A program made the translations under genes and the position numbers. 64,000 nucleotides of DNA, from positions 2,525-66,524 of the forward strand of contig JAILOD010000104.1 in the NCBI GenBank assembly GCA_024691015.1, written 5' to 3'. Source of the DNA: Lachnospiraceae bacterium. Lineage in GTDB: Bacteria; Bacillota; Clostridia; Lachnospirales; Lachnospiraceae. Under the pieces are notes generated by a model, which was not told the origin of the DNA, ran no database searches, and saw only the letters and a program-made list of their open reading frames with translations. This document shows positions 22,319 through 54,254 of this stretch, in pieces (position 1 is the first letter of the stretch; the number at the start of each line of letters is the position of its first letter).

Positions 22319-22411
22319 CAGTTCAAGAAAAGTCCGTTTAAACGATAAGGGCTTATTAACTGCGGGTAAACAGAAATCTGACAAATGCATAAACAGGAGT
22401 CAGGTGGTTTT

Positions 22412-30011: not shown

Positions 30012-30040
30012 TTAACATAATTTTAATTATGTTTTATAAT
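30012..30040 (+). promoter_or_regulatory. Near-consensus sigma-A-type promoter at the head of the 30-kb co-directional block
   Basis: TTAACA, 17-nt spacer, TATAAT. It lies in a ~300-nt very AT-rich divergent intergenic region, ~55 nt upstream of ATG 30096. Confidence 0.5.
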
Positions 30041-30095
30041 GCAAAAGTTGATATAAACAAATATTGGGTCAATATCTATTATCAGGAGCACAAAT

Positions 30096-31955
30096 ATGAG
30101 TAACAACCAACTTTATCCATTTGAAAGAAATCGTTATTACCCCGGGAAGATGCTGACCAGCGCTGATTTTCAGGCTGAACAGAACTACTTCATCAACAAG
30201 TCCAGATTTATGAACAGTCTGATGTACGGAAGCGGAATTGTCTGCGGTTGCGGTGTATTCAGTCTGGACGACCTTTCGATCCTCATTGAGAGCGGAGTTG
30301 CCATCGACGGTATCGGACGTGAGATCGTCATAGACTCTTCAATTGTTAAAAAGCTGTCGGCAATAGATGGCTTTGACAGAATTGAAAGCTCGAATGTCAG
30401 TCTGTGCGTCAGGTTCAAGGAACAGGATGTTCACAGTGTTTATTCGGTGAATCATAAAGAGACCGACAAGGAATATGAATTCAACCGTATAAGTGAAGGG
30501 TATGAGCTCTTCCTCGTGGATTCGGAGACAATGGATGAGGTATTCGATATGGATTCCGAATTCATTTCAAAAGAGAACCTCTTCTCCGGAAATGATTACA
30601 CGGGAGATATAGTTTTCCCGACAACGGCCTGCAAGGGCAGAAATGTTAAAATGGTTCTCGAGATCAGAAAATTAACCAGTGCGGATACCCGTCTTTCGTG
30701 CTCCGCAGTTATTGAAACACCTTCATTTCTGAACGCTAAAGGAGAGAAGGAGATCTACATAGATGTCGAGGATATCTCTCTTGCAGAAGGAGAAGTTTAC
30801 AAGAAGGATTTCTGGCTTTATACCGAAGATACTGGCTCAATCGAGACAGATATAATATTGAGAAGCGGAAGCGCGACAGCCTTTGAAAGCGATGTGGCTG
30901 TGGGATGCGCATCCAGCTTCAGCATGAAGATCCGCCTTACCGATATATCTCCCCTGGAATTGGTCAATCGTGAAACCGGCCGTATGAATCTGGAGATGAG
31001 AAACATCGGAGAGGTGGATTATATTAAGCTTGCAGATATAAGGCTTGTACGTACCGAGGGCGCTTATGTCATAGAAGATATAACGGAAACCGGAGTAAAG
31101 CAGTACATTTCATCTCCCTCACAGGAGCTTAAGAAAAATGATTTCCTTGAGTTTTTCAATAAGGATGTAGATATACGTAAGGAAAACAGGAAGGTACAGA
31201 AGGAAGAAAAGCAGGAAAAGACCACTGTTGTGGAAAGCTTTGATAACAAGAATTATGCCACAGGTGTACTGGAGATACCTCTTGGGAAAGATGCTCACGC
31301 AGGTGACATCCGCTTCTCGGGTGAGATCGCACATGGCCTTGGAAAGGGCAATGTATATGTGTCTGTAGGCTATGAGGTCGTGGCTGATGACAAATCCCTT
31401 GGCATGAGCGCGAAGAGCACGATCTACGGAAATCCGGAACTTTTCTCGGCTGTTAACAATCAGCTTCTCGATGCTGAAACCGCTGTGAAGATCTTAAATG
31501 ACAAGGGCAGCTTCGTGGTTGCGGCAAGGCTTTTAAGAGATGTTGAATATCTTGTTCTTTCATACAGATGGGTTGCCATAAGATTCCCTGCCGGTGAAGA
31601 GATGGAGACCTTGGATTACATGGATAAATCGATCACGGCAGAAACTCCTACTGTTATTATGGGACCGAGAGAAAGTCACTTCTTCGGGGTTCGTTTCAAT
31701 AACATGAAGAATTGCAGCATTACGTACGAGCTGACCGCACCCGCCAGCGGAGAGATCACTCCCGACGGAATATATACATCTCCCGCAAAAGAGGGCGTAT
31801 ATGAGGTACGTATCTATTGTACCGATATGCCGGTTATATGTACTTATGTATATGCAATAGTAAAGAAGACTGCCGAAGAAGAAGGTATCAGTATGGGTGA
31901 AGAGCAGCAGCCGGAAGGGCCGAAGATTGAGCTACCCAACCTTAAATTAAAATAA
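30096..31955 (+). CDS. Hypothetical cytoplasmic protein with C-terminal Ig-like domain (candidate CIS-associated adaptor or fibre)
   Basis: AGGAG RBS; no signal peptide or TM. The N-terminal 'NRYYPGKMLTSADFQAEQNY...GSGIVCGCGV...GVAIDGIGREIV' looks like a conserved globular domain that I cannot name. The C-terminal 'ITYELTAPASGEITPDGIYTSPAKEGVYEVRIY' resembles bacterial Ig-like domains. Confidence 0.45.
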   Translation: MSNNQLYPFERNRYYPGKMLTSADFQAEQNYFINKSRFMNSLMYGSGIVCGCGVFSLDDLSILIESGVAIDGIGREIVIDSSIVKKLSAIDGFDRIESSNVSLCVRFKEQDVHSVYSVNHKETDKEYEFNRISEGYELFLVDSETMDEVFDMDSEFISKENLFSGNDYTGDIVFPTTACKGRNVKMVLEIRKLTSADTRLSCSAVIETPSFLNAKGEKEIYIDVEDISLAEGEVYKKDFWLYTEDTGSIETDIILRSGSATAFESDVAVGCASSFSMKIRLTDISPLELVNRETGRMNLEMRNIGEVDYIKLADIRLVRTEGAYVIEDITETGVKQYISSPSQELKKNDFLEFFNKDVDIRKENRKVQKEEKQEKTTVVESFDNKNYATGVLEIPLGKDAHAGDIRFSGEIAHGLGKGNVYVSVGYEVVADDKSLGMSAKSTIYGNPELFSAVNNQLLDAETAVKILNDKGSFVVAARLLRDVEYLVLSYRWVAIRFPAGEEMETLDYMDKSITAETPTVIMGPRESHFFGVRFNNMKNCSITYELTAPASGEITPDGIYTSPAKEGVYEVRIYCTDMPVICTYVYAIVKKTAEEEGISMGEEQQPEGPKIELPNLKLK

Positions 31956-31958
31956 AGG

Positions 31959-32816
31959 ATGAGCCGGATGATTTTTGAATCACAAAAAATGCGGCTTTCG
32001 ACTGTAGTAACAAAATTCTGCAACGAGAACAATGACTGTTATGTCTGCAGAGATTTAAACTCCTCAAACGGAAGCCTGTATACGGTTATAATCGTACATC
32101 AGCATGATATAGTGAAAAACATCCTGGAAGTATTCAGGGTGGCAGACAAGGAAGCGAAGAACGAATGCCTCATAGACAGCTTTACGGTCTTCGGTGGACA
32201 TTGTCTTGTTTTTCCGTACAGAAAAGAACGCCCCCTGTCGGATTTTTACGCCGGGGATGCGTATAAGCTTTCTGTGTGTGAAGATATCTGTATAAGCACT
32301 ATCTTATCCTGCATCTCGTCAAAAATCCCATATCCGCTGCTTTACCTCATACTCTCGCAGGGAGAACTGAATCTTACCAGCGAGAATACCGTGTATTTAA
32401 GCTACGCTGTTGATATGAGTGAGCTTGATGCCGCAAGAGGAGAGAAGGAATGTACGGTAGAGTGTGCAAAGATCTTATTAAAGCTTCTTGAGTCAAAGGC
32501 TGATCAAAAGGCGATAAGCTATCAGCTTCTTGAGAAGAAGGTCGGGAATAAGAGCTACGACAGATTTACGGATCTTTACAGAGATATAACCATTGCAGCC
32601 GTGGGCGGCAGAAAAAGCAGTATTTTTACCAAGATCAAGGCATGGTTCAGAAACAACAGTGACAGGATTTTCGGAGTGTTGTTCTGGATATGTCTGATGT
32701 TGGGCATTTTTGCGTTGAGTATACTACTGTCAAGGCTGATACTCGGAAACGGCTCCTGGCTCAGGCTTTTGTTTAATAATTTCAAGATAATCGGAACAGA
32801 AAATCTGGCAAAATAA
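31959..32816 (+). CDS. Hypothetical tail-anchored membrane protein
   Basis: A ~235-aa soluble N-terminal domain is followed by a single C-terminal TM, 'IFGVLFWICLMLGIFALSILL'. ATG 31968 is an alternative start. Confidence 0.45.
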   Translation: MSRMIFESQKMRLSTVVTKFCNENNDCYVCRDLNSSNGSLYTVIIVHQHDIVKNILEVFRVADKEAKNECLIDSFTVFGGHCLVFPYRKERPLSDFYAGDAYKLSVCEDICISTILSCISSKIPYPLLYLILSQGELNLTSENTVYLSYAVDMSELDAARGEKECTVECAKILLKLLESKADQKAISYQLLEKKVGNKSYDRFTDLYRDITIAAVGGRKSSIFTKIKAWFRNNSDRIFGVLFWICLMLGIFALSILLSRLILGNGSWLRLLFNNFKIIGTENLAK

Positions 32817-32907
32817 TTATTATTCAGTGGCCCGGAGGACGACTGAACAGTAACGCAGAATAAACTTTTTATGACCGGGATAGTCCCGACGGAATGAGGA
32901 AATAAGG

Positions 32908-35433
32908 ATGACTAACAGAAGACGTGTTTACGCCATAATCTTCATAGTGAGCATTATTGTATCGGCTTTAATCTTTGCCCGTGTCATGAGCGAGATGATC
33001 CACAGTACGGAATATACGGCATATACCGACAGCATGGTTACAAGCGAGGGTGTTTTCTTCTCGGAGAACCTTAAAGGAGAAGGCCTGATATACAGGTTTA
33101 ATACCGATGGCAGAGTGAAGAACATTTTCAACACACAGTCAATGGATTGCGAAAAGGTTTACCGTCTCGGTGTATATGAAGGAAACCTGATGGCGATATT
33201 ATCAAAACAGGTTGAAGTTGTGGTTGAAGAGAACGGTTCGGCGATCAAGAAGCTCAAGGAAGAATACAGGATCGTTACTCTGGCAAACAAGCTTTCCGTT
33301 ATAAAGGAAACCTCCGGTTTTTATCTGGAAGAAGGCGAGATCGTAAAAGATATATCCTCCGAAAACGGAGATATCTTCATTACTGTTATAACATCGGACG
33401 GAAGTACCATAAAGATCTACAGTCTGAATGAATCGGAGCTTCTGGATCCGAAGGAGATAGAAAAGAAAGAGAATAAAAAGGAAAAAGAGAAAGAGGAAGG
33501 TTCTCAGAAAAACGCCAAGAAGTCTGAAAAGGAATCAAAGGGCTTTGTTGACACGGTAAGAATAAAGGGAAGCACCGAGGGGCGCTTCTATGTTGATGCA
33601 AAATATGCTGACGGAGAACTGACATACAGAACAGATGCCGATAAGCCGACCGGGGCTTTTGCCGAGGATGCCCGTGTTACGGATGTTATCTCAAAAATGA
33701 AGCTTTCCCCGCTTAAGGGCTTTGTTGTTTACGGACGCTATTTCCTTGTTTGGATCGCAGCTCTTGCGGTATGGCTCATTGCAGTTACTCTTATTGCAAG
33801 AAATCTCTTTAACAGAAACAGGTCCGTTTATGCGTTCACTATTTCAGAGGTGATCCTTGTGATCATAATGATCATATTCGTAAATTATCTTTCATACGAT
33901 CACGGAAAGACTTTGACGGAGCAGAACAATAAATATGCCGTTCTGTCACTTCAATCCTTAAGAAGTGACATAAGAGGCTTTGAGTCGCTCGACTATAAAG
34001 ACAAGGAATTTTACGATTCTTTTGATTATTACGTACTTCAGCAATTGCTTTCCGAATTTGTTACAAAGTCCGGTAATTCAAGCGTGTTCAAGGATGTTCT
34101 TATCGTACACATTCCGGATAATTATGCCTATGTTTCGGCAAGCGGCAGAAATATGGAGGATGTCGGATACACATACGGCAGTGAAGCCGGAAATGCAACA
34201 CTTTCCCTTCAAAACAATATTTCCAATTATGCCTGGGAGAACTTCTATATTAATGGAAATCCCTGTGTTGCCATTGGCGTAGCCGGTAACAGCTTTATGA
34301 GTGATTATGTTCTGATGGGTGTAATATCCGATGCCGGAGAGAACGAGAGACTTAAGTTCCTGACGACAAGTCCCCGTCTGATGCTTGTTTTCGTAATACT
34401 CTTTATTATAGGAACACTTCTTCTCTTCCTGATATACAGAGTCATAAATCTGGATCTCGCAGAGCTTCGAAACGGGTTAAACGATCTTGCTCTGGGACGT
34501 GCGATCAACCGGAACAGAAGAACCTATGGAAACGACATGGTTCATATGTGGAATTCCATTTCGGAAATAGAAAAGAGAGTTGAAGAGATCAATTATTCCA
34601 AGTATAAGATACTGGAGGCATATTTCAAATATGCACCCAAGAATATTGAACGTGTTCTGGCAAAGGATTCGATACTTGAGGTGAAGGAAGGTGAGAAGCT
34701 TGACAGAAAAGGCTCTCTTGTATTCATTTCCACGGGTCAGACCGAGTTGTCCTCGCATGACGGAGCTTCGGGGCTTAAGGATGTCATATCCGATATAGAG
34801 AGCTGTCAGGAAAATGAGAATTCCACACTTATAAGTTCGGATTCGTCGCTTTCAATGCTTGAAATGTTCTTCCTTGATGAGGAAAGAGGAGTAACCGAAT
34901 TCGGAACCAACCTTATTACGGATAATATGAAGCACAGAGGATATAAGCGGCTTTCGGCATTTATCTATTACGGAGGCTTCACCTACGGAACAGTGGGTAC
35001 GGAAGGCCAGCTTCTTACATACCTTGTAGGAGACAAGATGGATGAGATGCGTTCTTACGCAAAATTCTTCCGCGACCTGAATCTGCCGCTGGTAATCACC
35101 GAATATATTAAGAGAAGAGAAAATATCACATTACCCTTAAGACACATCGGTTATATACAGCCCGGTGAAGATACGGATAAGATCCAGCTTTACGAGGTAT
35201 TGGATGCTGTGGGCAGAGATGAACGTATAAACCGTATGAAGAGCGCTGAAAGATTTGAAGCAACACTTAATCTTTTCTATAAGAAGGATTTTTATTTTGC
35301 AAGAAACCAGTTCTCTGAATTGCTCAAGGAATATCCTACGGACGAACTTATAAGATGGTATCTCTTTGAGAGTGAGAAATATCTCAATGAGGAAGTTGAA
35401 AACGCAGACTTTGGTGAACTTCATTACAAGTAA
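32908..35433 (+). CDS. Polytopic membrane signalling protein: extracytoplasmic domains + HAMP-like linker + degenerate class III cyclase-homology domain + TPR-like tail
   Basis: Four TM helices bound two extracytoplasmic segments. 'LDLAELRNGLNDLALG' after the last TM is HAMP-like. 'GSLVFISTGQTEL ... AFIYYGGFTYGTVGTEGQLLTYLVGDKMDEMRSYA' aligns by eye with the cyclase core, but Asp in 'FxDixGFT' is replaced by Ser. Confidence 0.45.
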   Translation: MTNRRRVYAIIFIVSIIVSALIFARVMSEMIHSTEYTAYTDSMVTSEGVFFSENLKGEGLIYRFNTDGRVKNIFNTQSMDCEKVYRLGVYEGNLMAILSKQVEVVVEENGSAIKKLKEEYRIVTLANKLSVIKETSGFYLEEGEIVKDISSENGDIFITVITSDGSTIKIYSLNESELLDPKEIEKKENKKEKEKEEGSQKNAKKSEKESKGFVDTVRIKGSTEGRFYVDAKYADGELTYRTDADKPTGAFAEDARVTDVISKMKLSPLKGFVVYGRYFLVWIAALAVWLIAVTLIARNLFNRNRSVYAFTISEVILVIIMIIFVNYLSYDHGKTLTEQNNKYAVLSLQSLRSDIRGFESLDYKDKEFYDSFDYYVLQQLLSEFVTKSGNSSVFKDVLIVHIPDNYAYVSASGRNMEDVGYTYGSEAGNATLSLQNNISNYAWENFYINGNPCVAIGVAGNSFMSDYVLMGVISDAGENERLKFLTTSPRLMLVFVILFIIGTLLLFLIYRVINLDLAELRNGLNDLALGRAINRNRRTYGNDMVHMWNSISEIEKRVEEINYSKYKILEAYFKYAPKNIERVLAKDSILEVKEGEKLDRKGSLVFISTGQTELSSHDGASGLKDVISDIESCQENENSTLISSDSSLSMLEMFFLDEERGVTEFGTNLITDNMKHRGYKRLSAFIYYGGFTYGTVGTEGQLLTYLVGDKMDEMRSYAKFFRDLNLPLVITEYIKRRENITLPLRHIGYIQPGEDTDKIQLYEVLDAVGRDERINRMKSAERFEATLNLFYKKDFYFARNQFSELLKEYPTDELIRWYLFESEKYLNEEVENADFGELHYK

Positions 35434-35435
35434 GA

Positions 35436-35471
35436 TAAGTTATATAAGTTATATAAGTTATATAAGTTATA
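35436..35471. repeat. Tandem repeat, 4 perfect copies of 9-bp TAAGTTATA with degenerate flanking copies
   Basis: The sequence reads TAAGA (TAAGTTATA)x4 TAAGTAAGA TAAGTCAGG. It starts right after the stop codon at 35431-35433 and lies ~35 nt upstream of ATG 35507. Confidence 0.9.
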
Positions 35472-35506
35472 TAAGTAAGATAAGTCAGGTTTAAAAGGAA
35501 AAATAA

Positions 35507-36742
35507 ATGGGTGGAAGCGGAAATATCTTAAGTATTTTGCTGGAAACGATCAAATCCAGATTTGCGAGTATCGTTTCCAATCTAAAACTCTATACCAGCT
35601 GGGCATTCATAAAAGCCAGAATAATCATCAAGATAAGAGACTTCTTCTACAGTCTCCTGGATGTAAGACCTAAGAACAAAAATGATTATTTTCCGGTATT
35701 CGGATGGCTTGTAAGTAAGCGTCTGGCATATATGCTCGTGGTAGTTGTGGGAGTTATAAGTCTGTTTTATATTACTTCCGAAACCAAGCTTTTCTCAAGA
35801 TTCGGAACAAACGGCGGTATCAGAACCTACAAGTACGATTCTTTCAGGCTTCGTCTGGCAAATGAAAAGGTGCAGATCACCGGAAAAAGCGGGTATTTAG
35901 CTTACGAGGGAAATGTTAGCAAGGGCGCCGTACAGGGGGCCGGAACACTTTACAATCTCTCAGGAAATGTTGTTTATACAGGGAACTTTGAGAACAGTAA
36001 ATACGAGGGAGTCGGTACCTTAAACTATGGTAATGGAAATTTAAGATATAACGGTTCCTTCCATGAAAATCTTTTCAGCGGTACCGGAAATCTCTTCAGG
36101 GATGACGGGACTACGGAATATGTCGGAGAATTCTCGCAGGGACAGAAGAACGGCACCGGTGTATTGTATGACGGTGGTGGAAACGAGCTCTTCAACGGGA
36201 AATTTGCTTCTGATGAGATAGTATATGGAGAGCTTCTGGGCAAAACGGCCCCGGAAGTTGTTGCAATGTATAAAGGAAAAGAAGTCTTCTATACATACGA
36301 AGACAGCAATATCGTATATATGCCCGGGATAAATGCCATCTATGAAGCTGTCGGAGACGGCGAGGCAGTCGATGATTCCGCAAAGGTTCAGGCTGTATAT
36401 GTACTTCAGAATTCACTTCCCTACGGCAATAACCGTCTAAGAAAAATATCCGATATAGCATCGGTTATGGGAAATCCCATATACGAAGGAAATTCTAAGG
36501 TTGTTTTGCCTGAGGTTATAGCAATAAATACGTTAAACGAAACCGGAAATACTGAAAACTCACGTATAGAGATGGATGTCGAACCGATGTTTTCGGATGC
36601 GTTTACGGTAAACGGTTTTGATAACGAATATTCCGTATATATATACTCCTTCAAAAGAGGAGAGCAGATTTACAGCTTTGTCTGCAACGGACAGAGCGAC
36701 AACTTTGACTGTTATTACATTACAAAAGCCGGAGAAGCCTGA
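35507..36742 (+). CDS. MORN-repeat membrane protein
   Basis: One TM ('LAYMLVVVVGVISLFYI') is followed by 4-5 MORN-type repeats: 'YEGNVSKGAVQGAGTLY', 'YTGNFENSKYEGVGTLNY', 'YNGSFHENLFSGTGNLF' and 'YVGEFSQGQKNGTGVLY'. Confidence 0.7.
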   Translation: MGGSGNILSILLETIKSRFASIVSNLKLYTSWAFIKARIIIKIRDFFYSLLDVRPKNKNDYFPVFGWLVSKRLAYMLVVVVGVISLFYITSETKLFSRFGTNGGIRTYKYDSFRLRLANEKVQITGKSGYLAYEGNVSKGAVQGAGTLYNLSGNVVYTGNFENSKYEGVGTLNYGNGNLRYNGSFHENLFSGTGNLFRDDGTTEYVGEFSQGQKNGTGVLYDGGGNELFNGKFASDEIVYGELLGKTAPEVVAMYKGKEVFYTYEDSNIVYMPGINAIYEAVGDGEAVDDSAKVQAVYVLQNSLPYGNNRLRKISDIASVMGNPIYEGNSKVVLPEVIAINTLNETGNTENSRIEMDVEPMFSDAFTVNGFDNEYSVYIYSFKRGEQIYSFVCNGQSDNFDCYYITKAGEA

Positions 36743-36825
36743 TTGGCTTTTTGTAAAATGTATTCGTATATAAGTTATGACAGAATAGTGTATCAGTATT
36801 TGTGGAAACGGGAATACCTTAAATT

Positions 36826-38871
36826 ATGATAAAACACGGACTTGCAAAAAAGTTAATAATATGCGGTTTATCGTTTATCTGTATGATTTCCGGGTTTTCA
36901 ACTGTTCCGGTGACGGTTTATGCAAGAAATCAAAAGCTGGATATTAAGACCGCAAGACAGGTGGCTTTAGTTAACAGCGATAAATATGATGCGGCTGTTG
37001 ACAAGATAGATGCAAAGCAGGCGGCATACAACAGTAAGGTGAAATCGCTTTCCCTTAAGAAAACGAACCTTACCACTTTCCGTTGGTCACCTCTCTTAAG
37101 CTTTACATTTCCACAGCAGTTAAATGAGGCCCAGTCGGCGGAATTTGATTTTACGCCGGTATCACTTCAATACGATATTTCGGTAGCCGAGCACAAGGCA
37201 AAGGACACTATATTAACAGTCTATCAGGATGTAAACAATGTTTTTGTGGACATTGTAGCAGGGCAGAAAAAGATAGCCTTCAATGAAAGACGCCTTGAAT
37301 CGGTAGAGAGCAACCTTAAGAGAAATAAGGTAAAGCTTGCGGCAGGTACCGCAAACCAGGCCGACATCGATAAAATGGAAGCCAAGCAGAAATCACTTAC
37401 ATCAACCATTGCGGCGGACAGACGAACCCTGGAGGCCAATCTGAAAAAGCTCTCCAAGCTTATGGGAAAGGATATAAGCACCGGTTACGATTTCGCACCG
37501 CCCTATATCGACACAAAGCTCACCAGAGATCAGCTGGATCCGCTTATCCAGTATGCGATGGACAGAGATGAAACGGTATACGAAGCACGTATTGCAGAAG
37601 CTTCTAAGAAAATAGAGTTAAAGACCAATTACGATCTTTTCCAGAGAAAATACAGCGGTGATATAAATATTATTTCTTCTTATGTACAGGCAGCCTTAAA
37701 CGGCGGAGAAGTAGATAAGAAGGCATTCAAAAAAGCATATAAGGACTTTCTCAATAAGATAGACAGCTACTGGGAAGGAAAAAAGAGGATCCTCTTCTTT
37801 AAATTCCCCAGGCTTTGGTTTAAAGGGTCATTAGACGGTACCCGTTATATAGAAGATGATTCCGGAGTTGTACAGACACTTGTAAATGATATGGTAACGG
37901 CAATGAATGACAGAGAAGCGGCAGAGGACGATCTCACCACCGCGGTTACTGACGGCTTTAACAATTATGTTTCAGTCAAGAATTCATATCAGCAGTTTAA
38001 GACCGATCTGGACAAAGCAGAACAGAATCTGGATAAGTCATATATCAAGAACCAGCTCGGAGAAATGACCTTTGAGGAATATGACAGCGAGCTTCAGTCG
38101 TACGAGGATCTTCAGAACCAGTACCTGGATTCAATGAAGCTTTATACCAAGACTCTTCACGAGCTTGACAGAACCACCTGCGGAGGTGTCAGTGCTATTC
38201 TGGACGGAACCGATGCTGATATGCAAACCGCAAAAGAAGGTGAAAGCTATGTTGAAAAGAGCAAGACAAAGCTTCACTATACATTAAAGCCCATAATAGA
38301 GAAGTTTGAGTTTGAACTGACACTCAGTAAGCCTGAAGACTTCCCTATAGAGGTTACGGATTACGAGCTCTGGGCCGACAAGACACAGATAGGAGAGCGG
38401 ATGCCCTTCGATAAGTCATTGAGGCATCTGATGCTTACAACAACCGAAGCCGACAGGTTTTTCGTAAGACTTTACGACGGAGATAAATTCATAGACGACT
38501 GTGATTTTGATCCGGAAGTCGAGTCTGGGGATCTCGAGGTTATCAGCGATCTGGCCATAAAGAAGAATGAAGGCGAAGTAGTCGGAACTTATGAGATAGT
38601 ATCCAACGAAGAGACCGGATTTATGGATATAACACTCAAGCTTGACGATGAAAAGGTTAAGAAGTACCAGTTCACCGATGAGAATGGCAACAAGGTCGGA
38701 GCAAGTGCTCCTCTTGAGATAGAAAAGCCTCTCAGACACTTGGGTCTTGTGGAGACCGATCTCGGAACATTAACGGTTGAGTTCTTCGATGAAGGCGGAA
38801 CATCACTGTATAAGGCACGTCTGGATACGCAAAACGTCAAGGTAAAGAAACTTGTCGATGAAGAAGAGTAA
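36826..38871 (+). CDS. Secreted TolC/OEP-like coiled-coil protein with duplicated C-terminal beta-rich module
   Basis: It has a signal-peptide-like N-terminus ending 'VTVYA'. The N-terminal two-thirds has OEP-like helical repeats, for example 'SNLKRNKVKLAAGTANQADIDKMEAKQ'. The C-terminus has two ~95-aa units sharing 'K(S/P)LRHL'. Confidence 0.4.
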   Translation: MIKHGLAKKLIICGLSFICMISGFSTVPVTVYARNQKLDIKTARQVALVNSDKYDAAVDKIDAKQAAYNSKVKSLSLKKTNLTTFRWSPLLSFTFPQQLNEAQSAEFDFTPVSLQYDISVAEHKAKDTILTVYQDVNNVFVDIVAGQKKIAFNERRLESVESNLKRNKVKLAAGTANQADIDKMEAKQKSLTSTIAADRRTLEANLKKLSKLMGKDISTGYDFAPPYIDTKLTRDQLDPLIQYAMDRDETVYEARIAEASKKIELKTNYDLFQRKYSGDINIISSYVQAALNGGEVDKKAFKKAYKDFLNKIDSYWEGKKRILFFKFPRLWFKGSLDGTRYIEDDSGVVQTLVNDMVTAMNDREAAEDDLTTAVTDGFNNYVSVKNSYQQFKTDLDKAEQNLDKSYIKNQLGEMTFEEYDSELQSYEDLQNQYLDSMKLYTKTLHELDRTTCGGVSAILDGTDADMQTAKEGESYVEKSKTKLHYTLKPIIEKFEFELTLSKPEDFPIEVTDYELWADKTQIGERMPFDKSLRHLMLTTTEADRFFVRLYDGDKFIDDCDFDPEVESGDLEVISDLAIKKNEGEVVGTYEIVSNEETGFMDITLKLDDEKVKKYQFTDENGNKVGASAPLEIEKPLRHLGLVETDLGTLTVEFFDEGGTSLYKARLDTQNVKVKKLVDEEE

Positions 38872-38877
38872 GAGCTT

Positions 38878-41568
38878 ATGAAAAAAGAATCGATCATCAA
38901 AAACTTAATAAAAAGGGCGGGGGCTTTAGTCCTCGCCGCAACCCTTACGGCAGTCTCAATTCCGGCTGCAAATATTCATGCTCTGTTCAATCCTGATAAG
39001 GCTATTACCTACAGGGAGTTTAAGTCAAAATATACGGTCGAGACCAGCAGCATCTTCCTCGGAACCTATATCGTCCAGAAGGATGCCTTAACGGATGACA
39101 TATACAAAAAGGCCGTAAAGAGCGGAAGCAAAACGGGACAGCAGAACACCTATTACAAATCCGAGCTTTCGGATGACAGCTGGGTTTTAGTAGACGACAT
39201 TGATAACGGTATTAAAGGTCTGTCTTCGGAGAGCGTTCCTGTAGCGGAATCAGTTCTGGATCCCCTGTACGTACAGTATTTTATGGGGGCCGACGGAATC
39301 TTAATGGATGCTCTTACAGGTCTTCCGGTAAATCCCTTCGATATACCCGATCCCTATGATCTTACCGAAATGGAAGAGCTTCAGCCGCTCTGGATGCAAT
39401 ATACAATGAGCGATACCAAAGCGGATATATCTCAGGAGGATTTCCTTAAGAACAGGAATTCCGAGGGTTCCGGACATTTAAGAAGTGATGTTTACTACTA
39501 TCAGTTGTTAAATACCTTCTTCTCTCTGGACTTAAGGGATGACGAGACAAACGATCTGGACAAGAAGCTGTCAAAGCTCAACGTCCTGTACAATAACTTA
39601 AAGAAGGCCGGAAATAACGATGAAGCGCAGGTTGTATACGGTCTTATGAAGAAGGTTGACGCATCGAGACGTGCCATAATAATGGCAAAGCTTTCACAGG
39701 ATGATGTAAGTGCTCTGAATACCCTTCTTACATTGGGAAGCGGAGATTATTATACTTCTGAGGGTAACTTCAAGGATTCCTCCGATGATGAAAACACCTC
39801 CGGAGACGAGAAATACATTACGGAGCTGAAGGATTCGTTAAAGCATGACTTTACAAAGTCATCCAAAAGCTCACTTGCCTGGCTTAATAAATGGCTTTCA
39901 AAGTTAGGTATCACGAAGGATTCTGATGGTTGGTGGACGGTTCTTGAGCAGGCACAGAGCAGAAAGAGCTCGAGCATTTCTTCATCCGCAAAAGCGGCAG
40001 AAGAGGAAAGCGATGATGATGTTAAGATCGCAACTGTTTTAAGCGAAGAAAACTTTAATATCGATAATAATATAATAAGTGCGATATCCGAGTCCATGGG
40101 CAACTGTGACGAAAGCTACAATACTCATATAGCCGAATCCTTAAAGGATGTCGATAAGGTTTTGGGACATGCTGAATATCAATATTCGGTATCCGTTATA
40201 GAAGACTCCACCACAGAAGAGCTCGGCGGACCGATCACCTACTTAAAGCATGTATTAAATATCAGGGATAACAATATAATAGATGCATCCGGAGAGCTGT
40301 CTCTTCTTAAGAGTTCGCTGCTTTCACTGGTGTGCAATAAATATACCAATTCGGTAAGCGCGGGTGTGAATGATGAATATAATGAAGCATCCACGGAGAA
40401 TTCAAAGCAGGCGGCGCTGAACAGTGAAAAGGCGGCAACCGAAGACATACGTATGGAGGTTCAGTACCTTATAAGAGCTGCAAGCGACAGAGATTCCGCA
40501 GCTGAGGCATTAGCTTATGTTCAGGGAAGGATCACCTGGGCCGAAGGGTTATTTGATCAGGTTAAGAATGATGCCTACAAGACAAATGCAAATGCTTCGA
40601 TAAATGCCCTTATTCTTTGGCTCAAGGAAGAAGCACAGAGAATAATCGATTCGGACGCAAGCCTTAAATCGGAGCTGGATAAGCTTAAGGATAAAAAGGC
40701 AGATCTTCAGGAGCAGCGCGATGCAGCACTCGATGATAACGATCTTGCCGGAGCAAAGCTTTTAGATGCCAAGATCGCTGCTGTTGATCAGGATATAGCC
40801 GATGCGGGCGGAGATGACGGATCCGATATAGTTGATAAGGCCAAAAAGGCTCTTGCAGAGGATCCCAATGCAGATGTGTCCGGTATGGCTGATGCCCTTG
40901 CAGGATTAGGCGATGAGGATGGCTTAAATGATCTTCTTGATGCAGCAAAGGACATGGGAGCGGATACAGGAGATATCAAGGATGCTCTTGATAATGTAGA
41001 TAAGAAGGATGGAGCACTTTCAGAGGATGATCTCTTAAATGCACTTCTTGATTTCTTCGGAAAAGGCATAGACGAGATGAGTGCAAAGGAGCTGGCGATC
41101 GCAACCACCGGTCTTTCAAGGTACGGTCGAAGCGGTGTGGAACCTGCAAACAAGCTTGCAAGAGAGCTGGCACAGCGTGGCAGAAGCTTGAGAAACCCTT
41201 ATTTCTTCAATCAGTATACAAAGGATAAGACGATCGAGGGTATCAGCTTAAAGACCGTAGGAGATGTGACGGAATACAGATATTTCTATGATGATTCCAA
41301 GAGAACCTCAACGATGACCTACGGAGCAAAGATATATGTTTTCAAAAACGGCAGTGCTTCTTATTCCATCGGAAAGGATTCCGATAAAACCGAAAACCTG
41401 ACCGAAAAGATAGTTTTCTCAACGGTACCTTACATTGCAGAGGCTGATGCGACAAATATCTTTAAGTGCGATACGGAATATGTAAGCGGTTCGCAGACGG
41501 CAGTTATAGTAACAAGCTCTATGCAGAGCCCGGTCGAAAATTTAATTTCGGCCCTCGAAGAACTTTAA
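38878..41568 (+). CDS. Large secreted protein of unknown function, acidic and coiled-coil-rich
   Basis: The signal peptide is 'ALVLAATLTAVSIPAANIHA'. Long D/E/A/L-rich segments are present. I recognised no domain. Confidence 0.4.
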   Translation: MKKESIIKNLIKRAGALVLAATLTAVSIPAANIHALFNPDKAITYREFKSKYTVETSSIFLGTYIVQKDALTDDIYKKAVKSGSKTGQQNTYYKSELSDDSWVLVDDIDNGIKGLSSESVPVAESVLDPLYVQYFMGADGILMDALTGLPVNPFDIPDPYDLTEMEELQPLWMQYTMSDTKADISQEDFLKNRNSEGSGHLRSDVYYYQLLNTFFSLDLRDDETNDLDKKLSKLNVLYNNLKKAGNNDEAQVVYGLMKKVDASRRAIIMAKLSQDDVSALNTLLTLGSGDYYTSEGNFKDSSDDENTSGDEKYITELKDSLKHDFTKSSKSSLAWLNKWLSKLGITKDSDGWWTVLEQAQSRKSSSISSSAKAAEEESDDDVKIATVLSEENFNIDNNIISAISESMGNCDESYNTHIAESLKDVDKVLGHAEYQYSVSVIEDSTTEELGGPITYLKHVLNIRDNNIIDASGELSLLKSSLLSLVCNKYTNSVSAGVNDEYNEASTENSKQAALNSEKAATEDIRMEVQYLIRAASDRDSAAEALAYVQGRITWAEGLFDQVKNDAYKTNANASINALILWLKEEAQRIIDSDASLKSELDKLKDKKADLQEQRDAALDDNDLAGAKLLDAKIAAVDQDIADAGGDDGSDIVDKAKKALAEDPNADVSGMADALAGLGDEDGLNDLLDAAKDMGADTGDIKDALDNVDKKDGALSEDDLLNALLDFFGKGIDEMSAKELAIATTGLSRYGRSGVEPANKLARELAQRGRSLRNPYFFNQYTKDKTIEGISLKTVGDVTEYRYFYDDSKRTSTMTYGAKIYVFKNGSASYSIGKDSDKTENLTEKIVFSTVPYIAEADATNIFKCDTEYVSGSQTAVIVTSSMQSPVENLISALEEL

Positions 41569-41619: not shown

Positions 41620-42210
41620 ATGGCAGATTATCCCATAATCGCAGATGTAAGTGCATATATAGTGAGGACATTGAGGGAAAAGATGTGTCCTGAACCCATC
41701 CCCTCACCGAACAATATAGAGATTTCATCCCCTGCGGCACAGGACGTTGACTATATCGTCGGGCTTTACCTGTACGACATAAAAGAAGATGTAATGCTGT
41801 CGACTCCAAACACCGTACAGAGGGGAAGAGCGCTTTTATCAAAGCCGCCAAGACCATATTCTTTATATTATATGGTTTTTATAAACGGTTCCTCCCAGAT
41901 GGGACTAAAGGCACCGGATATACAAAAGATCATTGGTCGAGTAGCCCAGATAGTTAATGATAAACCATCTGTAAGACCAAATGAACTGCAGTCGTGGTTG
42001 GACACGCAGGAACCTCCGATAGTACTGTCTCAGGCGAAGATAAGTCTGGAGGAAAAGGTAAGGGTGTGGCAGGCTATTAACAAACCATATCAGATAAGCC
42101 TGTTTTATAAGGCGGCACCCGTATTCCTGTCCAGCGGAGAGGTTATTTCCACACCTCGTGTTACAGATGCCAGCTTCAGTCTGCATGTTACTGGAGAAGA
42201 AAGGAGGTAA
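41620..42210 (+). CDS. DUF4255 (Pvc16/Afp16 N-terminal domain) CIS tail-cap-like protein
   Basis: 'LYLYDIKED', 'PPRPYSLYYMV' and 'LSLEEKVRVWQAINKPYQISLFYKAAPVFL' match the DUF4255 pattern. Confidence 0.8.
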   Translation: MADYPIIADVSAYIVRTLREKMCPEPIPSPNNIEISSPAAQDVDYIVGLYLYDIKEDVMLSTPNTVQRGRALLSKPPRPYSLYYMVFINGSSQMGLKAPDIQKIIGRVAQIVNDKPSVRPNELQSWLDTQEPPIVLSQAKISLEEKVRVWQAINKPYQISLFYKAAPVFLSSGEVISTPRVTDASFSLHVTGEERR

Positions 42211-42219
42211 TATTAAAAG

Positions 42220-43074
42220 GTGGACGCTTCTGTTATTCGTGCAAGATTAGACCTTGTTATTAATCTCATCGATACCACAACGGGAGCTGCAGTAAACGAA
42301 ATGAATGTCAGATTTATGAAGGACGGCTGCCCCGTTCGTCCGGAACCGAGAGGCGACGGAAACTTCATCTTCATAAACAGTGGCAGAGAAAACTGTCTCA
42401 TGCACATAGAAGTTTATGGATATGAAAGCACGGACCTTGAGATCAATTATGAAACAATGGACGAACAGATCCCGACCTCGTATGTTTTCCTGATGCCGTC
42501 AGAGAAAACAGCTACAGGAGAGTCAGTCTTTGGTATTTCCGGCAAACTTACTTCTCTTGAATCCATCGAAGGCATTTACCTGAGAAAACCGGTCGCATCA
42601 TACAGCGAATACAATCTCAAGAAAAACATAATGAGCTTGTTTGGCTTTGTACCCGGCATGGAAGTGCGGTTAGATCAGATATTCTACGGAATTCTGAATG
42701 ACGATGGAAATGGTTACGAAATTTTTGAAGTAGTCGGTTCACCCGGACCGCAAAAGGTCAACGTAAGAGATCCAATCCCGGAGAGTGTTAAGGCAAATCA
42801 GAAGATCTACAGAAGGATCTTCGGAAAAGCCGATAAGGAAGGAAACTTCAAATTTCTCATAAGGGACGATGCCACGGTTTTGGAATATGTTCTGAGATTT
42901 GTGGTAGACGGACAGGTGTATTTCAGAAAAATTGATTTCAGAAACACCTACGGAGAGATCGATCTTATGGATGGGGCCGTTAGAGCTGTAGAAGAGCCCG
43001 GACCGGAAGAATCGGAAGATAAGGATCCGAAAGCGGATCAAAAGGCCAAAGAGCCCGGAAAGGATAAAAATTGA
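42220..43074 (+). CDS. Hypothetical protein, beta-sandwich-like N-terminus and K/E/P-rich disordered C-terminus
   Basis: The N-terminal ~90 aa resemble a carboxypeptidase-regulatory-like fold. The tail is 'EEPGPEESEDKDPKADQKAKEPGKDKN'. The GTG start is uncertain. Confidence 0.35.
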   Translation: MDASVIRARLDLVINLIDTTTGAAVNEMNVRFMKDGCPVRPEPRGDGNFIFINSGRENCLMHIEVYGYESTDLEINYETMDEQIPTSYVFLMPSEKTATGESVFGISGKLTSLESIEGIYLRKPVASYSEYNLKKNIMSLFGFVPGMEVRLDQIFYGILNDDGNGYEIFEVVGSPGPQKVNVRDPIPESVKANQKIYRRIFGKADKEGNFKFLIRDDATVLEYVLRFVVDGQVYFRKIDFRNTYGEIDLMDGAVRAVEEPGPEESEDKDPKADQKAKEPGKDKN

Positions 43075-43457
43075 GTCAGGTAGCCACTGTGGGCGCAACT
43101 TGTATGTGCTCATTCGGAACAGCACCGTCACCCTTAAGAGTGACATCACAACAGAAGATCATGTGCGACGGCAAGCCGGCGGGGACCATCCAGGATGCAA
43201 CCCCGGCAAATATGGGACCATTCGGAATGTGTACCACTCCGACAAATCCGGCAGTTGCTGCAGCTACTGCCGCGGCACTTGGAGTTTTAACTCCGCAGCC
43301 CTGTACGGTTACACCGGCAGGAACGTGGATACCCACAAAACCGAAGATCTTAGTCGACGGAAAACCCGTTTTGACACAGGATTGTAAATGTATGTGTGCA
43401 TTCGGCGGTTCAATCTCAATAGTGAATCCGGGACAGGTAAAAACTACAGCGAATTAA
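43071..43457 (+). CDS. DUF4280 PAAR-like spike-tip protein
   Basis: 'CMCSFGTAPSPLRV', 'GPFGMCTTPTNP', 'PCTVTPAGTW' and 'CKCMCAFGGSISIVNPGQ' are present. The TTG start overlaps the upstream stop (TTGA). Confidence 0.75.
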   Translation: MSQVATVGATCMCSFGTAPSPLRVTSQQKIMCDGKPAGTIQDATPANMGPFGMCTTPTNPAVAAATAAALGVLTPQPCTVTPAGTWIPTKPKILVDGKPVLTQDCKCMCAFGGSISIVNPGQVKTTAN

Positions 43458-43482: not shown

Positions 43483-45195
43483 ATGGCTGAATATTTTTCA
43501 CCAGGTGTATATGTGGAAGAATATGACAATTCTCCCCGTAGCATAGAAGGCGTTGGAACAAGTACAGCGGGCTTTATAGGCTTCGCCGAAAAAGGACCCG
43601 TAGAGGGAGCTCCTCTTCTTGTAACAAATATGAAGAGCTTCAGACAACAGTTTGGCGGCTTTCTTTCAGAGTTTGCTTTTGGCGAATATCGCTTTCTTGC
43701 AAACAGTGTAGAACAGTTCTTCGACAATGGCGGAACCCGTTGTTATGTAATGCGTGTAGCTCCCAAGGATGCTGTAAGCGCAAAGGCAGATAAGGGTATC
43801 CTCACCGTTGAAGCAGCAAATCCCGGTAAGTGGGGTAACAAGATCCAGGTTATAATGGCTCTTGGAAAGAAGCATAAGCTTCAGCTTACAAAGAAAACAG
43901 ATACAGGCTTTATCGCAAAGAATCTCGACGGATTCCGTGAGGGCGATCTCGTGGAATTCCAGGGTACATACAACAAGATCAAGACAATCTTCGATAATGA
44001 GGTAACCTTCGAAGAAAAGCTTCCCGATTCTGCAGTTGATGCAGGTATAGTTCCCAAGAATCTTCTCTATTTAGTAACGGTAGACATATCAGTGAAATAT
44101 GGAGATGATGTAGAGAACTACTCGGAGCTTTCATTCAATATGGCTTCACCCCGTTACATCGATGCAAAGCTTGCAACAAGCAATCTTGTAAAGGTTCAGG
44201 TTAAGCCTGTGGAAAAAGCAGGAAATCCTGTCGAAAGTATTTTCGGTAAGGGCAACACAAGCGGAATGTTCGTTCTTGAAGGTGGTTCAGACGGCTCAAT
44301 GGCAAAGGTTAATTCAGGAACCTTTATCGGAGAGGACAACGGCCCCGGAAAGAGAACAGGTATTCAGGCATTCCTTGAGAACAATACAGTCAGCATGATG
44401 GCAATACCCGGTATCACAACTCCCGAGATCATCGTAGCACTCGTAGCACATTGTGAGAACCTTCGTTCACGCTTTGCAGTTATCGATATGCCCGGCGAGA
44501 TGACAAAGACCGCAGATCTGATCCAGTACAGACAGATCATCGATTCGACCTATGCTGCTATGTATCATCCCTGGATCCAGGTTTATGATCGTTCTTCCAA
44601 CAAGCTTGATTACATCCCTCCTTCAGGAGCTGTAATGGGTATCTATTCAAGAACCGATGTAAACCGTGGTGTACACAAGGCTCCCGCAAACGAAGTTATC
44701 TTCTGTACGGGACTTAAGGTTAACTACACAAAGGATGAGCAGGATGTACTTAATCCCGAAGGGATCAACCTTATCCGTGCACTGCCCGGACAGGGGATCA
44801 GAGTATGGGGTGCCCGTACAGCTTCCAGCAATTCCAACTTCAAATATGTCAACGTCAGACGTCTCTTCATCTTTGTCGAAGAGTCGATCAAGGCAAATAC
44901 CAACTGGGTTGTATTCGAACCCAACGATGCATCACTCTGGCAGAGAGTTTCACTTACGATATCCAATTTCCTGGATAATCTTTGGAGAAACGGAATGCTT
45001 GCCGGTGATTCGGTTTCAGACAGCTACTTCGTAGAGATCGGTGCTTCTACAATGAGCAGAGACGATATCATGAACGGAAGGCTTATCTGTAACATCGGTA
45101 TTGCTCCTTCGAGACCTGCTGAATTCGTTATCTTCCGCGTAACCCAGCATACAGCTGAGGCCGGCGGTGGCGGCGGAGAAGGCGAAGAAGGTTGA
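43483..45195 (+). CDS. Contractile tail sheath protein
   Basis: GGAGG RBS. The N-terminus 'YFSPGVYVEEYDNSPRSIEGVGTSTAGFIGFAEKGP' and the C-terminal 'GINLIRALPGQGIRVWGARTAS...NVRRLFIFVEESI' are sheath signatures. An unusual G/E tail 'AGGGGGEGEEG' ends the protein. Confidence 0.9.
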   Translation: MAEYFSPGVYVEEYDNSPRSIEGVGTSTAGFIGFAEKGPVEGAPLLVTNMKSFRQQFGGFLSEFAFGEYRFLANSVEQFFDNGGTRCYVMRVAPKDAVSAKADKGILTVEAANPGKWGNKIQVIMALGKKHKLQLTKKTDTGFIAKNLDGFREGDLVEFQGTYNKIKTIFDNEVTFEEKLPDSAVDAGIVPKNLLYLVTVDISVKYGDDVENYSELSFNMASPRYIDAKLATSNLVKVQVKPVEKAGNPVESIFGKGNTSGMFVLEGGSDGSMAKVNSGTFIGEDNGPGKRTGIQAFLENNTVSMMAIPGITTPEIIVALVAHCENLRSRFAVIDMPGEMTKTADLIQYRQIIDSTYAAMYHPWIQVYDRSSNKLDYIPPSGAVMGIYSRTDVNRGVHKAPANEVIFCTGLKVNYTKDEQDVLNPEGINLIRALPGQGIRVWGARTASSNSNFKYVNVRRLFIFVEESIKANTNWVVFEPNDASLWQRVSLTISNFLDNLWRNGMLAGDSVSDSYFVEIGASTMSRDDIMNGRLICNIGIAPSRPAEFVIFRVTQHTAEAGGGGGEGEEG

Positions 45196-45236: not shown

Positions 45237-45734
45237 ATGGCTGATGCATATAAAAATGACAAAGGTTCAGATTATCCGTTAACCAAAATGAACTTCCTTG
45301 TCACTGTATCCACTATAGCAGGAACGGCTGCTTTCAGTGAAGTGACAGGGGTTGAAGGAACAGTCGATGTTATCGAATTCAGACAGGGTAATTCGGGTTC
45401 ACTTGCACCCGTAAAGATTCCGGGACTTGTTAAGCACGGAAATGTAACCCTGAAGATGGGATACATCATCAACAGCCCGTTCAAGACCTGGATACAGGAA
45501 TGTGTATCCGAAGTAAGAGGTCAGATACCGAGACAGGAGGTTACGATCGAGCTTATCGATATTAACCCCGGTGCTCCCGCACAGCTGGTAACCTCAGCAA
45601 CAGGTACCAGACAGTGGACATTAAAGAATGCATGGGTAACCAAATATTCGGCTCCCGATCTTGATGCGAAGACAAGCGATGTCGCAATCGAGAGTGTGGA
45701 GATCGCTTACGAGGAACTGGTTATTCCCAACTAA
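45237..45734 (+). CDS. Tail tube protein (T4 gp19-type / Afp1-like)
   Basis: 'MNFLVTVSTIAGTAAFSEVTGVEGTVDVIEFRQGNS...GNVTLKMGYI...FKTWIQ' matches the conserved phage-tail-region tube pattern. Confidence 0.85.
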   Translation: MADAYKNDKGSDYPLTKMNFLVTVSTIAGTAAFSEVTGVEGTVDVIEFRQGNSGSLAPVKIPGLVKHGNVTLKMGYIINSPFKTWIQECVSEVRGQIPRQEVTIELIDINPGAPAQLVTSATGTRQWTLKNAWVTKYSAPDLDAKTSDVAIESVEIAYEELVIPN

Positions 45735-48060: not shown

Positions 48061-48076
48061 TCACAGGGTTTAACAG

Positions 48077-49960: not shown

Positions 49961-49962
49961 TC

Positions 49963-50823: not shown

Positions 50824-50836
50824 GGAGGGATCGGTT

Positions 50837-51658: not shown

Positions 51659-51700
51659 TATTTTTGATCATAAAGGCCATAAAGGAGAAAGCAGCTATAA

Positions 51701-52849: not shown

Positions 52850-52860
52850 GGAGAAAATTT

Positions 52861-54235: not shown

Positions 54236-54254
54236 AGTATAAGGATCTTAAAGA

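Follow-up and report, generated by a model that had tools for sequence, protein, structure and literature searches.

In the secretion system of type VI (T6SS), TssK, a baseplate protein resembling phage receptor-binding proteins, has been repurposed to hold an envelope-spanning complex, TssJ-TssL-TssM, that is encoded with the machine. Related arrangements are known from other contractile injection systems (CIS). In Streptomyces coelicolor, the membrane protein CisA is encoded with a Gram-positive CIS and is needed for its contraction and function, its cytoplasmic part being predicted to contact the CIS. For the haloarchaeal T6SS, the putative anchor is Hbor_38620, an uncharacterised multi-pass membrane gene that lies upstream of the core cluster and occurs in exactly one CIS clade. 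In Anabaena, Cis13 (All3316) is a tail-fibre-like trimer whose N-terminus sits on the baseplate and whose C-terminus anchors the CIS in the thylakoid membrane (PMC8894136). Extracellular CIS (eCIS) have been catalogued computationally (Nat Commun 2026, PMC12923769), with loci of Butyrivibrio, Hungatella and other Clostridia listed as carrying eBAP3-type fibres; the catalogue reads eBAP3-type proteins as fast-evolving receptor binders of released particles, and reports that eBAP3/Tail_P2_I baseplates resemble TssK/TssG of the T6SS (PMC12923769). Here we describe a CIS locus of a Lachnospiraceae bacterium, on a stretch of 64,000 nucleotides (GCA_024691015.1, contig JAILOD010000104.1, positions 2,525 to 66,524; ‘the window’), in which six genes, here genes 1 to 6, precede the CIS core. 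We consider it reasonably likely that these genes form a lineage-specific envelope module that anchors or triggers the CIS in a monoderm host and so links the cytoplasmic machine to the envelope.

The six genes lie on the same strand with gaps of 3, 91, 73, 83 and 6 nt and run into the Pvc16_N (DUF4255) gene at 41620 after a further 51 nt (Table 1), much as the original prediction for this stretch had described. Downstream, genes for a sheath, inner tube, gp25-like protein, Baseplate_J proteins, spike and Pvc16_N cap stand in one array, which identifies the locus as a CIS. On the 5′ side the block is bordered by divergent tyrA and aroA, with housekeeping genes further up.

The question on which the proposal turns is whether the block travels with the CIS. 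One genome per GTDB species was scanned with a Pvc16 alignment, yielding 213 genomes, of which the best 80 loci (79–91% Pvc16 identity) were inspected. The label of nearly all of these 80 genomes is Lachnospiraceae or the name of one of its genera (Butyrivibrio, Acetatifactor, Hungatella, Eubacterium), while a few carry uninformative or probably mis-binned labels; their origins are the rumen and the human and mouse gut. Among these best 80, every locus with enough upstream DNA carries the end of gene 1 and then genes 2 to 6, arranged as in the window, with the sole exception of one locus that lacks gene 6 (L072). The converse search gave the same picture. A word-index search with gene 3 returned four homologue clusters at 33–39% identity, all in the same block, where genes for 617, 281, 805 and 411 (MORN) residues follow one another. 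Three of the four contigs continue with genes for ~686 and ~915 residues, Pvc16_N, a ~269-residue protein, DUF4280 and the sheath, and the fourth (L004) stops inside the MORN gene 4.

Five divergent gene 3 variants (565–900 residues) are likewise all found in a block running from gene 1 through gene 6 to Pvc16 and DUF4280; four of their loci reach the sheath gene, and the contig of the fifth (L094) stops at DUF4280. Compared with the window, these loci show 71–79% identity in Pvc16, 64–71% in the sheath (which is not reached in L094) and 25–50% in the module, and the lower Pvc16 and sheath identities indicate a second subclade. The open reading frames (ORFs) of the block are intact in the relatives, with conserved lengths and topologies. 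Thus the six genes do travel with the CIS core in both search directions, from gene 3 to the CIS and from Pvc16 to the block. The suggestion that they are a CIS-dedicated, membrane-spanning module is accordingly upheld as regards dedication, by co-occurrence and synteny, whereas an anchoring or triggering role is something we infer.

In close relatives the core proteins are 75–95% identical versus 25–76% for the module, a sign of much faster evolution in the module than in the machine. What precedes gene 1 varies among loci, and these upstream genes show no mutual similarity, marking gene 1 as the conserved 5′ boundary. The CIS of Paenibacillus cellulosilyticus, whose Pvc16 is 28% identical, has none of genes 2 to 6, so the module is lineage-specific. 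A tblastn search with gene 3 against 72,556 plasmids, including the Streptomyces and Halogeometricum CIS replicons, gave no match, nor did a Joint Genome Institute (JGI) metagenome scan with a distant gene 3 relative (P0241).

The block begins with a CIS structural gene. Residues 8–146 of gene 1 match the NCBIfam family CIS13_fam (NF053767) at E 5.2e-25 over profile positions 3–140; at 88.5 bits against an equivalog cut-off of 370, and with only the first 140 of 392 profile positions covered, this is a domain-level match only. The earlier statement that none of the six products resembles the usual CIS accessories, fibres among them, is therefore wrong for gene 1, and the Ig-like tail it assigned to this protein could not be verified, there being no Pfam support in nine homologues. 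Furthermore, residues 5–207 are 29% identical to the protein encoded after Tail_P2_I in the Paenibacillus CIS (L095), where it occupies the canonical Cis13 position at the 3′ end, after Cis12/Tail_P2_I. Gene 1 stands instead at the 5′ end of the cluster, and with the Paenibacillus homologue in the canonical place, gene 1 has therefore moved to the head of the envelope block in the Lachnospiraceae lineage.

Nine full-length sequences, compared with the window protein, give identities of 0.66 in the N-terminal part of gene 1, 0.36 in the middle and 0.64 in the C-terminal region (residues 386–592). This conserved C-terminus, unlike that of a binder of target receptors, suggests a conserved partner in the producer's own cell. 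Gene 1 has no transmembrane segment, no Pfam match and no match to a PDB sequence. No Pfam or NCBIfam match connects it with TssK/VasE, and the likeness to TssK rests on the published statement about eBAP3, not on fold. Gene 1 is presumably the eBAP3 protein catalogued for the Butyrivibrio and Hungatella loci.

The next three genes encode membrane proteins. Gene 2 comprises a ~235-residue cytoplasmic domain, a transmembrane helix (239–257) and a highly conserved 25-residue outer tail (GxxSWLRLLFNxFKxIGTESL); the helix lies within the last 60 residues in all 53 orthologues. Four cysteines (107, 118, 165 and 169; Cx10C ... CxxxC) are invariant in 25 orthologues and could possibly form a metal site. 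Pfam, NCBIfam and PHROGs give no family match for gene 2, and both it and gene 3 are annotated ‘hypothetical protein’ in Butyrivibrio isolates. A weak PDB profile match to a member of the myosin light chain kinase family (E 0.35) raised the idea of a pseudokinase, which was rejected: Pfam finds nothing, and hhalign against an approximate PknB kinase-domain sequence gives a probability of 0.3%.

Gene 3 has transmembrane helices at 9–27, 279–297, 307–325 and 491–509 (four helices in 55 of 60 orthologues), and its positive-inside pattern places two ectodomains outside and residues 510–841 inside. The cytoplasmic part, probably a helical linker, a cyclase-homology-like domain and a TPR-like end, is better conserved (0.30–0.45) than the ectodomains (0.21–0.22). 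The AlphaFold2 (AF2) model has a mean predicted local distance difference test (pLDDT) score of 55.6 and is poor except in the beta-rich first ectodomain, which is propeller-like according to Foldseek matches of this low-confidence model to five-bladed propellers. The top 40 Foldseek matches are class III adenylyl and guanylyl cyclases (E 1e-5 to 4e-4), in a region where the model has a pLDDT of 50–70. Pfam detects no Guanylate_cyc in the window protein, 22 orthologues or 10 distant relatives, and no HAMP (PF00672) in the window protein or the 22 orthologues; one distant homologue has a sub-threshold HAMP match (E 1.4e-4, 22.6 bits versus a cut-off of 25). A search of gene 3 against PDB sequences and profiles returned nothing useful. 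Of the former description as a four-helix HAMP/cyclase-homology protein, the four helices hold, whereas HAMP and cyclase go undetected by profile and the cyclase likeness comes from the fold match.

In relatives, the first strand of the cyclase-like domain reads LVFISTG, AILSVNN or GILSLAG, and by inspection there is no invariant Asp in 598–655. With the metal-binding Asp missing in all sequences inspected, we assign a cyclase-like, probably inactive C-terminal domain to gene 3 with moderate confidence. The family is large, with 271 representatives at E ≤ 1e-30 and 3201 at E ≤ 1e-3 in an exhaustive profile search. Variants of 560–620 and 880–900 residues retain only the fourth transmembrane helix and the cytoplasmic domain, the ectodomains having been swapped or lost.

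Gene 4 has a single transmembrane helix in all 65 orthologues, followed by about five extracytoplasmic MORN repeats (~130–240) and a C-terminal domain. Pfam MORN scores 23.4 bits against a cut-off of 22.5, and the orthologue profile matches PDB MORN proteins at E 1.4e-16; the helix count, Pfam and the PDB match bear out the earlier description of a single-pass MORN-repeat protein. The spacer between genes 3 and 4 is for the most part occupied by a 9-bp tandem repeat (ATAAGTTAT, 5.7 copies, 95% matches) at 35435–35485; in relatives this spacer measures ~13–30 nt and is free of the array.

Genes 5 and 6 encode exported proteins, with an N-terminal hydrophobic segment in 67 of 68 and 61 of 62 orthologues, respectively. 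Together with the cytoplasmic gene 1 and the tail-anchored gene 2, they show the topologies that had been predicted, and these are conserved in the orthologues. Gene 5 matches Pfam OEP (E 5e-10, 39.9 bits against a cut-off of 22), and its AF2 model (pLDDT 79) matches TolC, OprM and CusC in Foldseek with probability 1.0 (E 7.5e-9, ~480 columns), so that its TolC/OEP-like character is established by both family and fold. The helical hairpins have helices of 63–73 residues, ~10 nm (~100 Å) long. At the position of the TolC barrel, the monomer model has only strands of 3–4 residues (86–94, 221–223, 319–328), seemingly the vestige of a barrel, and two C-terminal beta-sandwich domains (474–676) are present in addition. 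Scores against TIGR01844 and TIGR01845 (34.5 and 24.7 bits) are far under the cut-offs of 225 and 210. Gene 5 has 350 homologue clusters and is named ‘TolC family protein’ by NCBI in Butyrivibrio. Lachnospiraceae are monoderm and have no outer membrane. In the block, Pfam and NCBIfam find no membrane-fusion protein and no ATP-binding cassette (ABC), resistance-nodulation-division (RND) or major facilitator superfamily (MFS) pump that could partner gene 5. The public gene call starts gene 5 19 codons later (36883 rather than 36826), giving 662 residues; no ribosome-binding site is evident ahead of the ATG at 36826, and the longer form has a canonical signal peptide ending VYA|RNQ.

Gene 6, described beforehand as a secreted acidic protein of 896 residues, has an isoelectric point of 4.5 in keeping with that description. 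Its N-terminal domain is conserved; a variable, acidic stretch and then a beta domain at the C-terminus follow. No other member of the block varies as much (575–1468 residues). The beta domain gives a faint Cu_amine_oxidN1-like signal in 3 of 28 orthologues, and a search of PDB sequences and profiles gave nothing useful. One relative has an extra ORF of 938 residues between gene 5 and a gene 6 of 1179 residues (L077, 3324–9766), and two others have a similar gap of ~6 kb at the gene 6 position (L050, L063). For genes 2 to 6 as a whole, PHROGs and NCBIfam return only noise or TolC matches, and hence no sign of phage or known CIS families.

In the CIS core, the stretch with the Pvc16_N, 284-residue and DUF4280 genes is 54–71% identical to its orthologues in relatives, which are called as PF14107. 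The window sheath is 43% identical to that of Streptomyces, its best match among the plasmids, 39% to that of Paenibacillus and 38% to that of the Halogeometricum borinquense CIS; cyanobacterial sheaths in the plasmid collection match more distantly (~32%). Characterised systems of the Streptomyces (cytoplasmic, CisA-dependent), haloarchaeal (membrane-anchored) and cyanobacterial (thylakoid-anchored in Anabaena) lineages are not released and are associated with membranes, a context that supports a non-released mode here. A scan of IMG/VR with the Pvc16 alignment gave no match, indicating that these loci are not catalogued as viral. A 465-residue protein encoded at 46663–48060 combines a Cis5-like tube-adaptor N-terminus (NF053770, E 2e-4) with a long C-terminal extension that contains two repeats of ~45 residues, each starting W-G-x-P-E-S-Q-Y-D-L and ending A-E-T-V-x-W-P.

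Given the strict linkage, the baseplate-attachment protein at the head of the block and the three membrane and two exported proteins that follow, the role of the module can be framed as the logic of TssK plus TssJLM. How the proteins touch, how the machine is anchored and which way it fires we infer as follows. The N-terminal domain of gene 1 would dock on the Tail_P2_I/Baseplate_J periphery of the baseplate, like TssK, and its C-terminal domain, instead of gripping a target-cell receptor, would hold the cytoplasmic domains of membrane proteins 2, 3 and 4. Gene 3 may sense an envelope or contact cue through its fast-evolving ectodomains and relay it inward to position or trigger the baseplate, the probably inactive cyclase-like domain serving for dimerisation; its architecture suggests that a signal is passed from outside to the baseplate. 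On the outer side, the ectodomains of genes 2 to 4 would link up with genes 5 and 6 within the wall. The wall could then be spanned jointly by gene 4's MORN ectodomain, the ~10-nm helical tunnel or strut of gene 5 and the acidic protein 6, which would serve either as an exit site made ready beforehand or as a mast for sensing. Firing might be directed outward, as in the T6SS, or into the producer's own membrane, as in Streptomyces.

In a more specific form of this proposal, which we offer only tentatively, the locus would encode a genuinely type-VI-like machine for secretion from a Gram-positive cell. A TssK-like Cis13 protein and a complex of five proteins across the envelope would keep the CIS at right angles to the cytoplasmic membrane, the exported TolC-fold and acidic members of that complex would organise passage through the thin Butyrivibrio wall, and the pseudo-cyclase receptor would set off firing when cells touch, so that effectors enter adjacent microbes of the rumen or gut.

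Set against the described systems, the module shares principles with several and parts with few. Genes 1 to 6 show no homology to TssJ, TssL, TssM or TssK in Pfam or NCBIfam; the host is monoderm, and genes 2 to 6 supply parts of other kinds, namely one tail-anchored protein, one pseudo-cyclase receptor, one protein with MORN repeats, one of TolC fold and one acidic protein of the wall. Anabaena Cis13 shares the N-terminal baseplate-binding domain family with gene 1 and has a C-terminal transmembrane helix of its own, whereas gene 1 lacks such a helix and has separate membrane proteins encoded after it; canonical Cis13 genes come after Cis12/Tail_P2_I, not at the 5′ end of the cluster. Like CisA, the membrane proteins described here are conserved companions of a Gram-positive CIS. 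By description, however, CisA is a single bitopic protein whose N-terminus is disordered and whose ectodomain resembles substrate-binding proteins, whereas five proteins with other folds are present here, and tblastn of gene 3 found no match on the plasmids that carry Streptomyces CIS. Hbor_38620 is likewise a membrane gene upstream of the core, in a system with a related sheath. It is described as having six transmembrane helices and a cytoplasmic domain of ~150 residues, and tblastn found no gene 3 homologue on the H. borinquense replicon.

Gene 5 resembles TolC and other outer membrane factors in passing the OEP threshold and in its fold, but differs in the short strands of its monomer model, the two extra beta-sandwich domains, the want of a pump partner in the operon and a host without an outer membrane. 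As for the eCIS fibres, gene 1 shares N-terminal homology with the protein after Tail_P2_I in the Paenibacillus CIS, but its C-terminus is conserved and five envelope genes follow it. No mention of these five genes was found in the eCIS catalogue, a paper that was not searched specifically for them (PMC12923769).

Several observations weigh against an anchoring or triggering module. A TolC trimer has a lumen of ~2–3.5 nm, far too narrow for a CIS tube, so that gene 5 is unlikely to be a plain conduit. At least one lineage does without gene 6: in L072 (8146–10001) gene 5 is followed directly by Pvc16. The window ORFs that were scanned contain no AAA domain, and with it no AAA+ ATPase (Cis15). 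The sensor assigned to gene 3 depends on a low-confidence model and on a domain that neither the cyclase nor the HAMP profile detects; AF2 models cover two of the six proteins (genes 3 and 5), that of gene 3 poorly. In addition, the co-occurrence was read from the best 80 of 213 Pvc16 loci, and the published computational catalogue treats the class of gene 1 as target-binding fibres of extracellular CIS.

This last point leads to a different account, in which the locus encodes an extracellular CIS with its release apparatus: gene 1 would be a target-binding fibre, and genes 2 to 6 would control escape of the particles through the wall or regulated lysis. Both the listing of Butyrivibrio and Hungatella loci of this type as eCIS with eBAP3 fibres and the lack of a transmembrane segment in gene 1 agree with it. 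No holin or endolysin was seen in the cluster, so release would require another system. The C-terminus of gene 1, however, is highly conserved and not hypervariable, and three of the five products of genes 2 to 6 have sizeable conserved cytoplasmic domains for which a release pore has no obvious need. Neither Pfam, NCBIfam nor PHROGs detects a peptidoglycan hydrolase, holin or spanin domain in genes 2 to 6; we regard this account as rather improbable. A Streptomyces-like cell-death system is also unlikely in our estimation, if a little easier to entertain. A cytoplasmic CIS would be recruited by genes 1 to 4 to the cell's own membrane on a stress signal sensed by gene 3, firing would kill the producer, and genes 5 and 6 would be accessories for stress sensing or wall coupling. 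The sheath is closest, among the plasmids, to that of Streptomyces, where firing requires the membrane protein CisA; gene 3 is sensor-like, and regulatory genes often adjoin the block in relatives (an OmpR-type regulator with a kinase, or SpoIIE with STAS). Yet two large exported proteins and extensive ectodomains are conserved, beyond what cytoplasmic recruitment would need, and no homology to CisA was detected, although no direct comparison with CisA was made. The unicellular lifestyle of Butyrivibrio also offers less rationale for developmental cell death.

Two further readings carry very little weight. The original prediction had allowed for an unrelated envelope system that is merely co-transcribed, and a TolC-like exporter with a sensor, located by chance upstream, would account for the Pfam OEP match and the NCBI name of gene 5 and for the lack of homology between genes 2 to 6 and known CIS parts. 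It is already largely refuted: every sampled homologue with enough flanking DNA is linked to a CIS, the order is kept in two subclades while the flanks vary, no membrane-fusion, ABC or RND partner is present, and a monoderm host offers no outer membrane for TolC. That the block is headed by a Cis13-type baseplate-attachment protein weakens it further, and we now consider it highly improbable. Equally remote is an immunity layer, in which the envelope proteins would shield the producer from the CIS of sister cells. Its exposed parts do evolve fast, as the gene 3 ectodomains (0.21–0.22) and the variable length of gene 6 show, but immunity genes normally pair with effectors, none of which was identified here, and the baseplate-attachment protein at the head and the conserved cytoplasmic domains would be left unexplained. 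An envelope module that anchors or triggers the CIS thus remains the reading we prefer.

The arrangement of the locus is consistent with transcription of module and core as a single unit. A simple pattern scan of the + strand from 30.0 to 60.6 kb, which takes in the junction between the module and the CIS genes, turned up no terminator-like site. The first such site after gene 1 follows Tail_P2_I directly, at 60608, which fits a single transcription unit of ~30.6 kb; the hairpin is likely its end. At the other end, the TTAACA-N17-TATAAT site lies 56 nt ahead of the gene 1 ATG and is the top-scoring one across 28–44 kb. It had been called the only strong promoter seen. The site is real and the best in this interval, but a second sigma-70-like site with 11/12 matches exists, and the window-wide count of two is what chance would give (1.9 expected from shuffles). 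As 2.4% of shuffled tyrA/gene 1 spacers reach 11/12, the site is unusual only locally. The relatives do not have this site in common upstream of gene 1; some carry a different motif, and gene 1 is preceded there by other genes on the same strand. We therefore treat the site as a plausible, well-placed candidate promoter and not as evidence. An Rfam scan of the whole window matched no family, and thus no riboswitch or leader ahead of gene 1.

Table 1 Features of the module and the CIS core in window coordinates (aa, amino acids)
Feature	Position	Strand	Description
Candidate promoter, TTAACA-N17-TATAAT	30012–30040	+	11/12 match, in the 307-bp, 24% GC tyrA/gene 1 spacer
Gene 1	30096–31955	+	619 aa, soluble; Cis13-type N-terminal domain, variable middle, conserved beta-rich C-terminal region
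Gene 2	31959–32816	+	285 aa, tail-anchored membrane protein
Gene 3	32908–35433	+	841 aa, receptor-like protein with four transmembrane helices
Gene 4	35507–36742	+	411 aa, single-pass (N-in) MORN protein
Gene 5	36826–38871	+	681 aa, exported TolC-fold protein
Gene 6	38878–41568	+	896 aa, exported acidic protein
Pvc16_N/Cis16 cap-like gene	41620–42210	+	Pvc16_N E 5e-29
Conserved 284-aa gene	42220–43074	+	Between the Pvc16_N and DUF4280 genes
DUF4280/PAAR-like gene	43071–43457	+	
Sheath	43483–45195	+	Phage_sheath_1/1C
Inner tube	45237–45734	+	Phage_T4_gp19
Rest of CIS core	46663–60566	+	In this order: Cis5-like tube adaptor fusion, 627-aa unknown, two CIS_tube, VgrG-related/gpD-like, Phage_base_V spike, gp25 (GPW_gp25), two Baseplate_J, Tail_P2_I
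Terminator-like hairpin and T-run	60608–60637	+	Scan site at 60608–60627; first after gene 1, directly 3′ of Tail_P2_I (pattern scan)

The surroundings of the block differ between the subclades. Gene 1 adjoins genes for a histidine kinase and an OmpR-type response regulator in four loci of the second subclade (L087, 803–2418; L089, 5468–7121; L091, 5684–7206; L093, 5036–7064), and L087 additionally carries SpoIIE plus STAS. The spacer before gene 1 in this subclade contains a direct repeat resembling CTTTAA-N5-CTTTAA and then a TGnTAnnAT-like element, both absent from the window, and the combination suggests that a two-component system controls the operon in these relatives. In L093, two AAA genes (704 and 773 residues; 131–4999, − strand) lie directly upstream of the block and divergent from it. 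Elsewhere, giant same-strand ORFs (3297 and >2205 residues) and other unrelated genes precede gene 1 (L001, 1–7188; L004, 1–7120; L006, 1–1941); they resemble neither one another nor anything in the window, and may be variable cargo or effectors, or mere neighbours. In the window itself, two neighbouring GGDEF diguanylate cyclase genes (586 and 562 residues, 22385–25830) lie on the same strand ~4 kb upstream of the block, cut off from it by the divergent aroA and tyrA; Rfam found no cyclic di-GMP riboswitch in the window. The other 11/12 sigma-70-like site (TGGACA-18-TATAAT, 16341–16370, − strand) stands upstream of a − strand ORF at 15473–16045. Past the terminator-like site, at 60944–63246, come an ABC transporter ATPase (222 residues) and later a histidine kinase (296 residues) with a coiled-coil N-terminus.

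The CIS loci of Butyrivibrio and Hungatella were already known from computational eCIS catalogues, with the class of gene 1 read as a fibre. What is new is the multi-protein envelope module, unrelated to those described, that accompanies a monoderm CIS; our literature search found no paper on genes 2 to 6, on a TolC-like protein with a CIS or on an envelope module for Clostridia CIS. Where automated catalogues enter such loci under ‘extracellular’ CIS and assign them ‘tail fibres’, the mode of action may be misread. Gene 5 would, moreover, be a TolC-fold protein recruited to a role other than efflux in a bacterium that lacks an outer membrane. Cultured strains with which these proposals can be pursued exist (Butyrivibrio sp. 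Su6, AE2015, AE2032, AE3004, AE3009 and DSM 10294; Lachnospiraceae bacterium AD3010 and XBB2008). How a CIS acts from inside a monoderm cell through the Gram-positive envelope is an acknowledged open problem, and the module offers a concrete, testable candidate for the missing envelope interface of a CIS lineage that at least 213 Lachnospiraceae species genomes carry, with rumen, human gut and mouse gut as sources.

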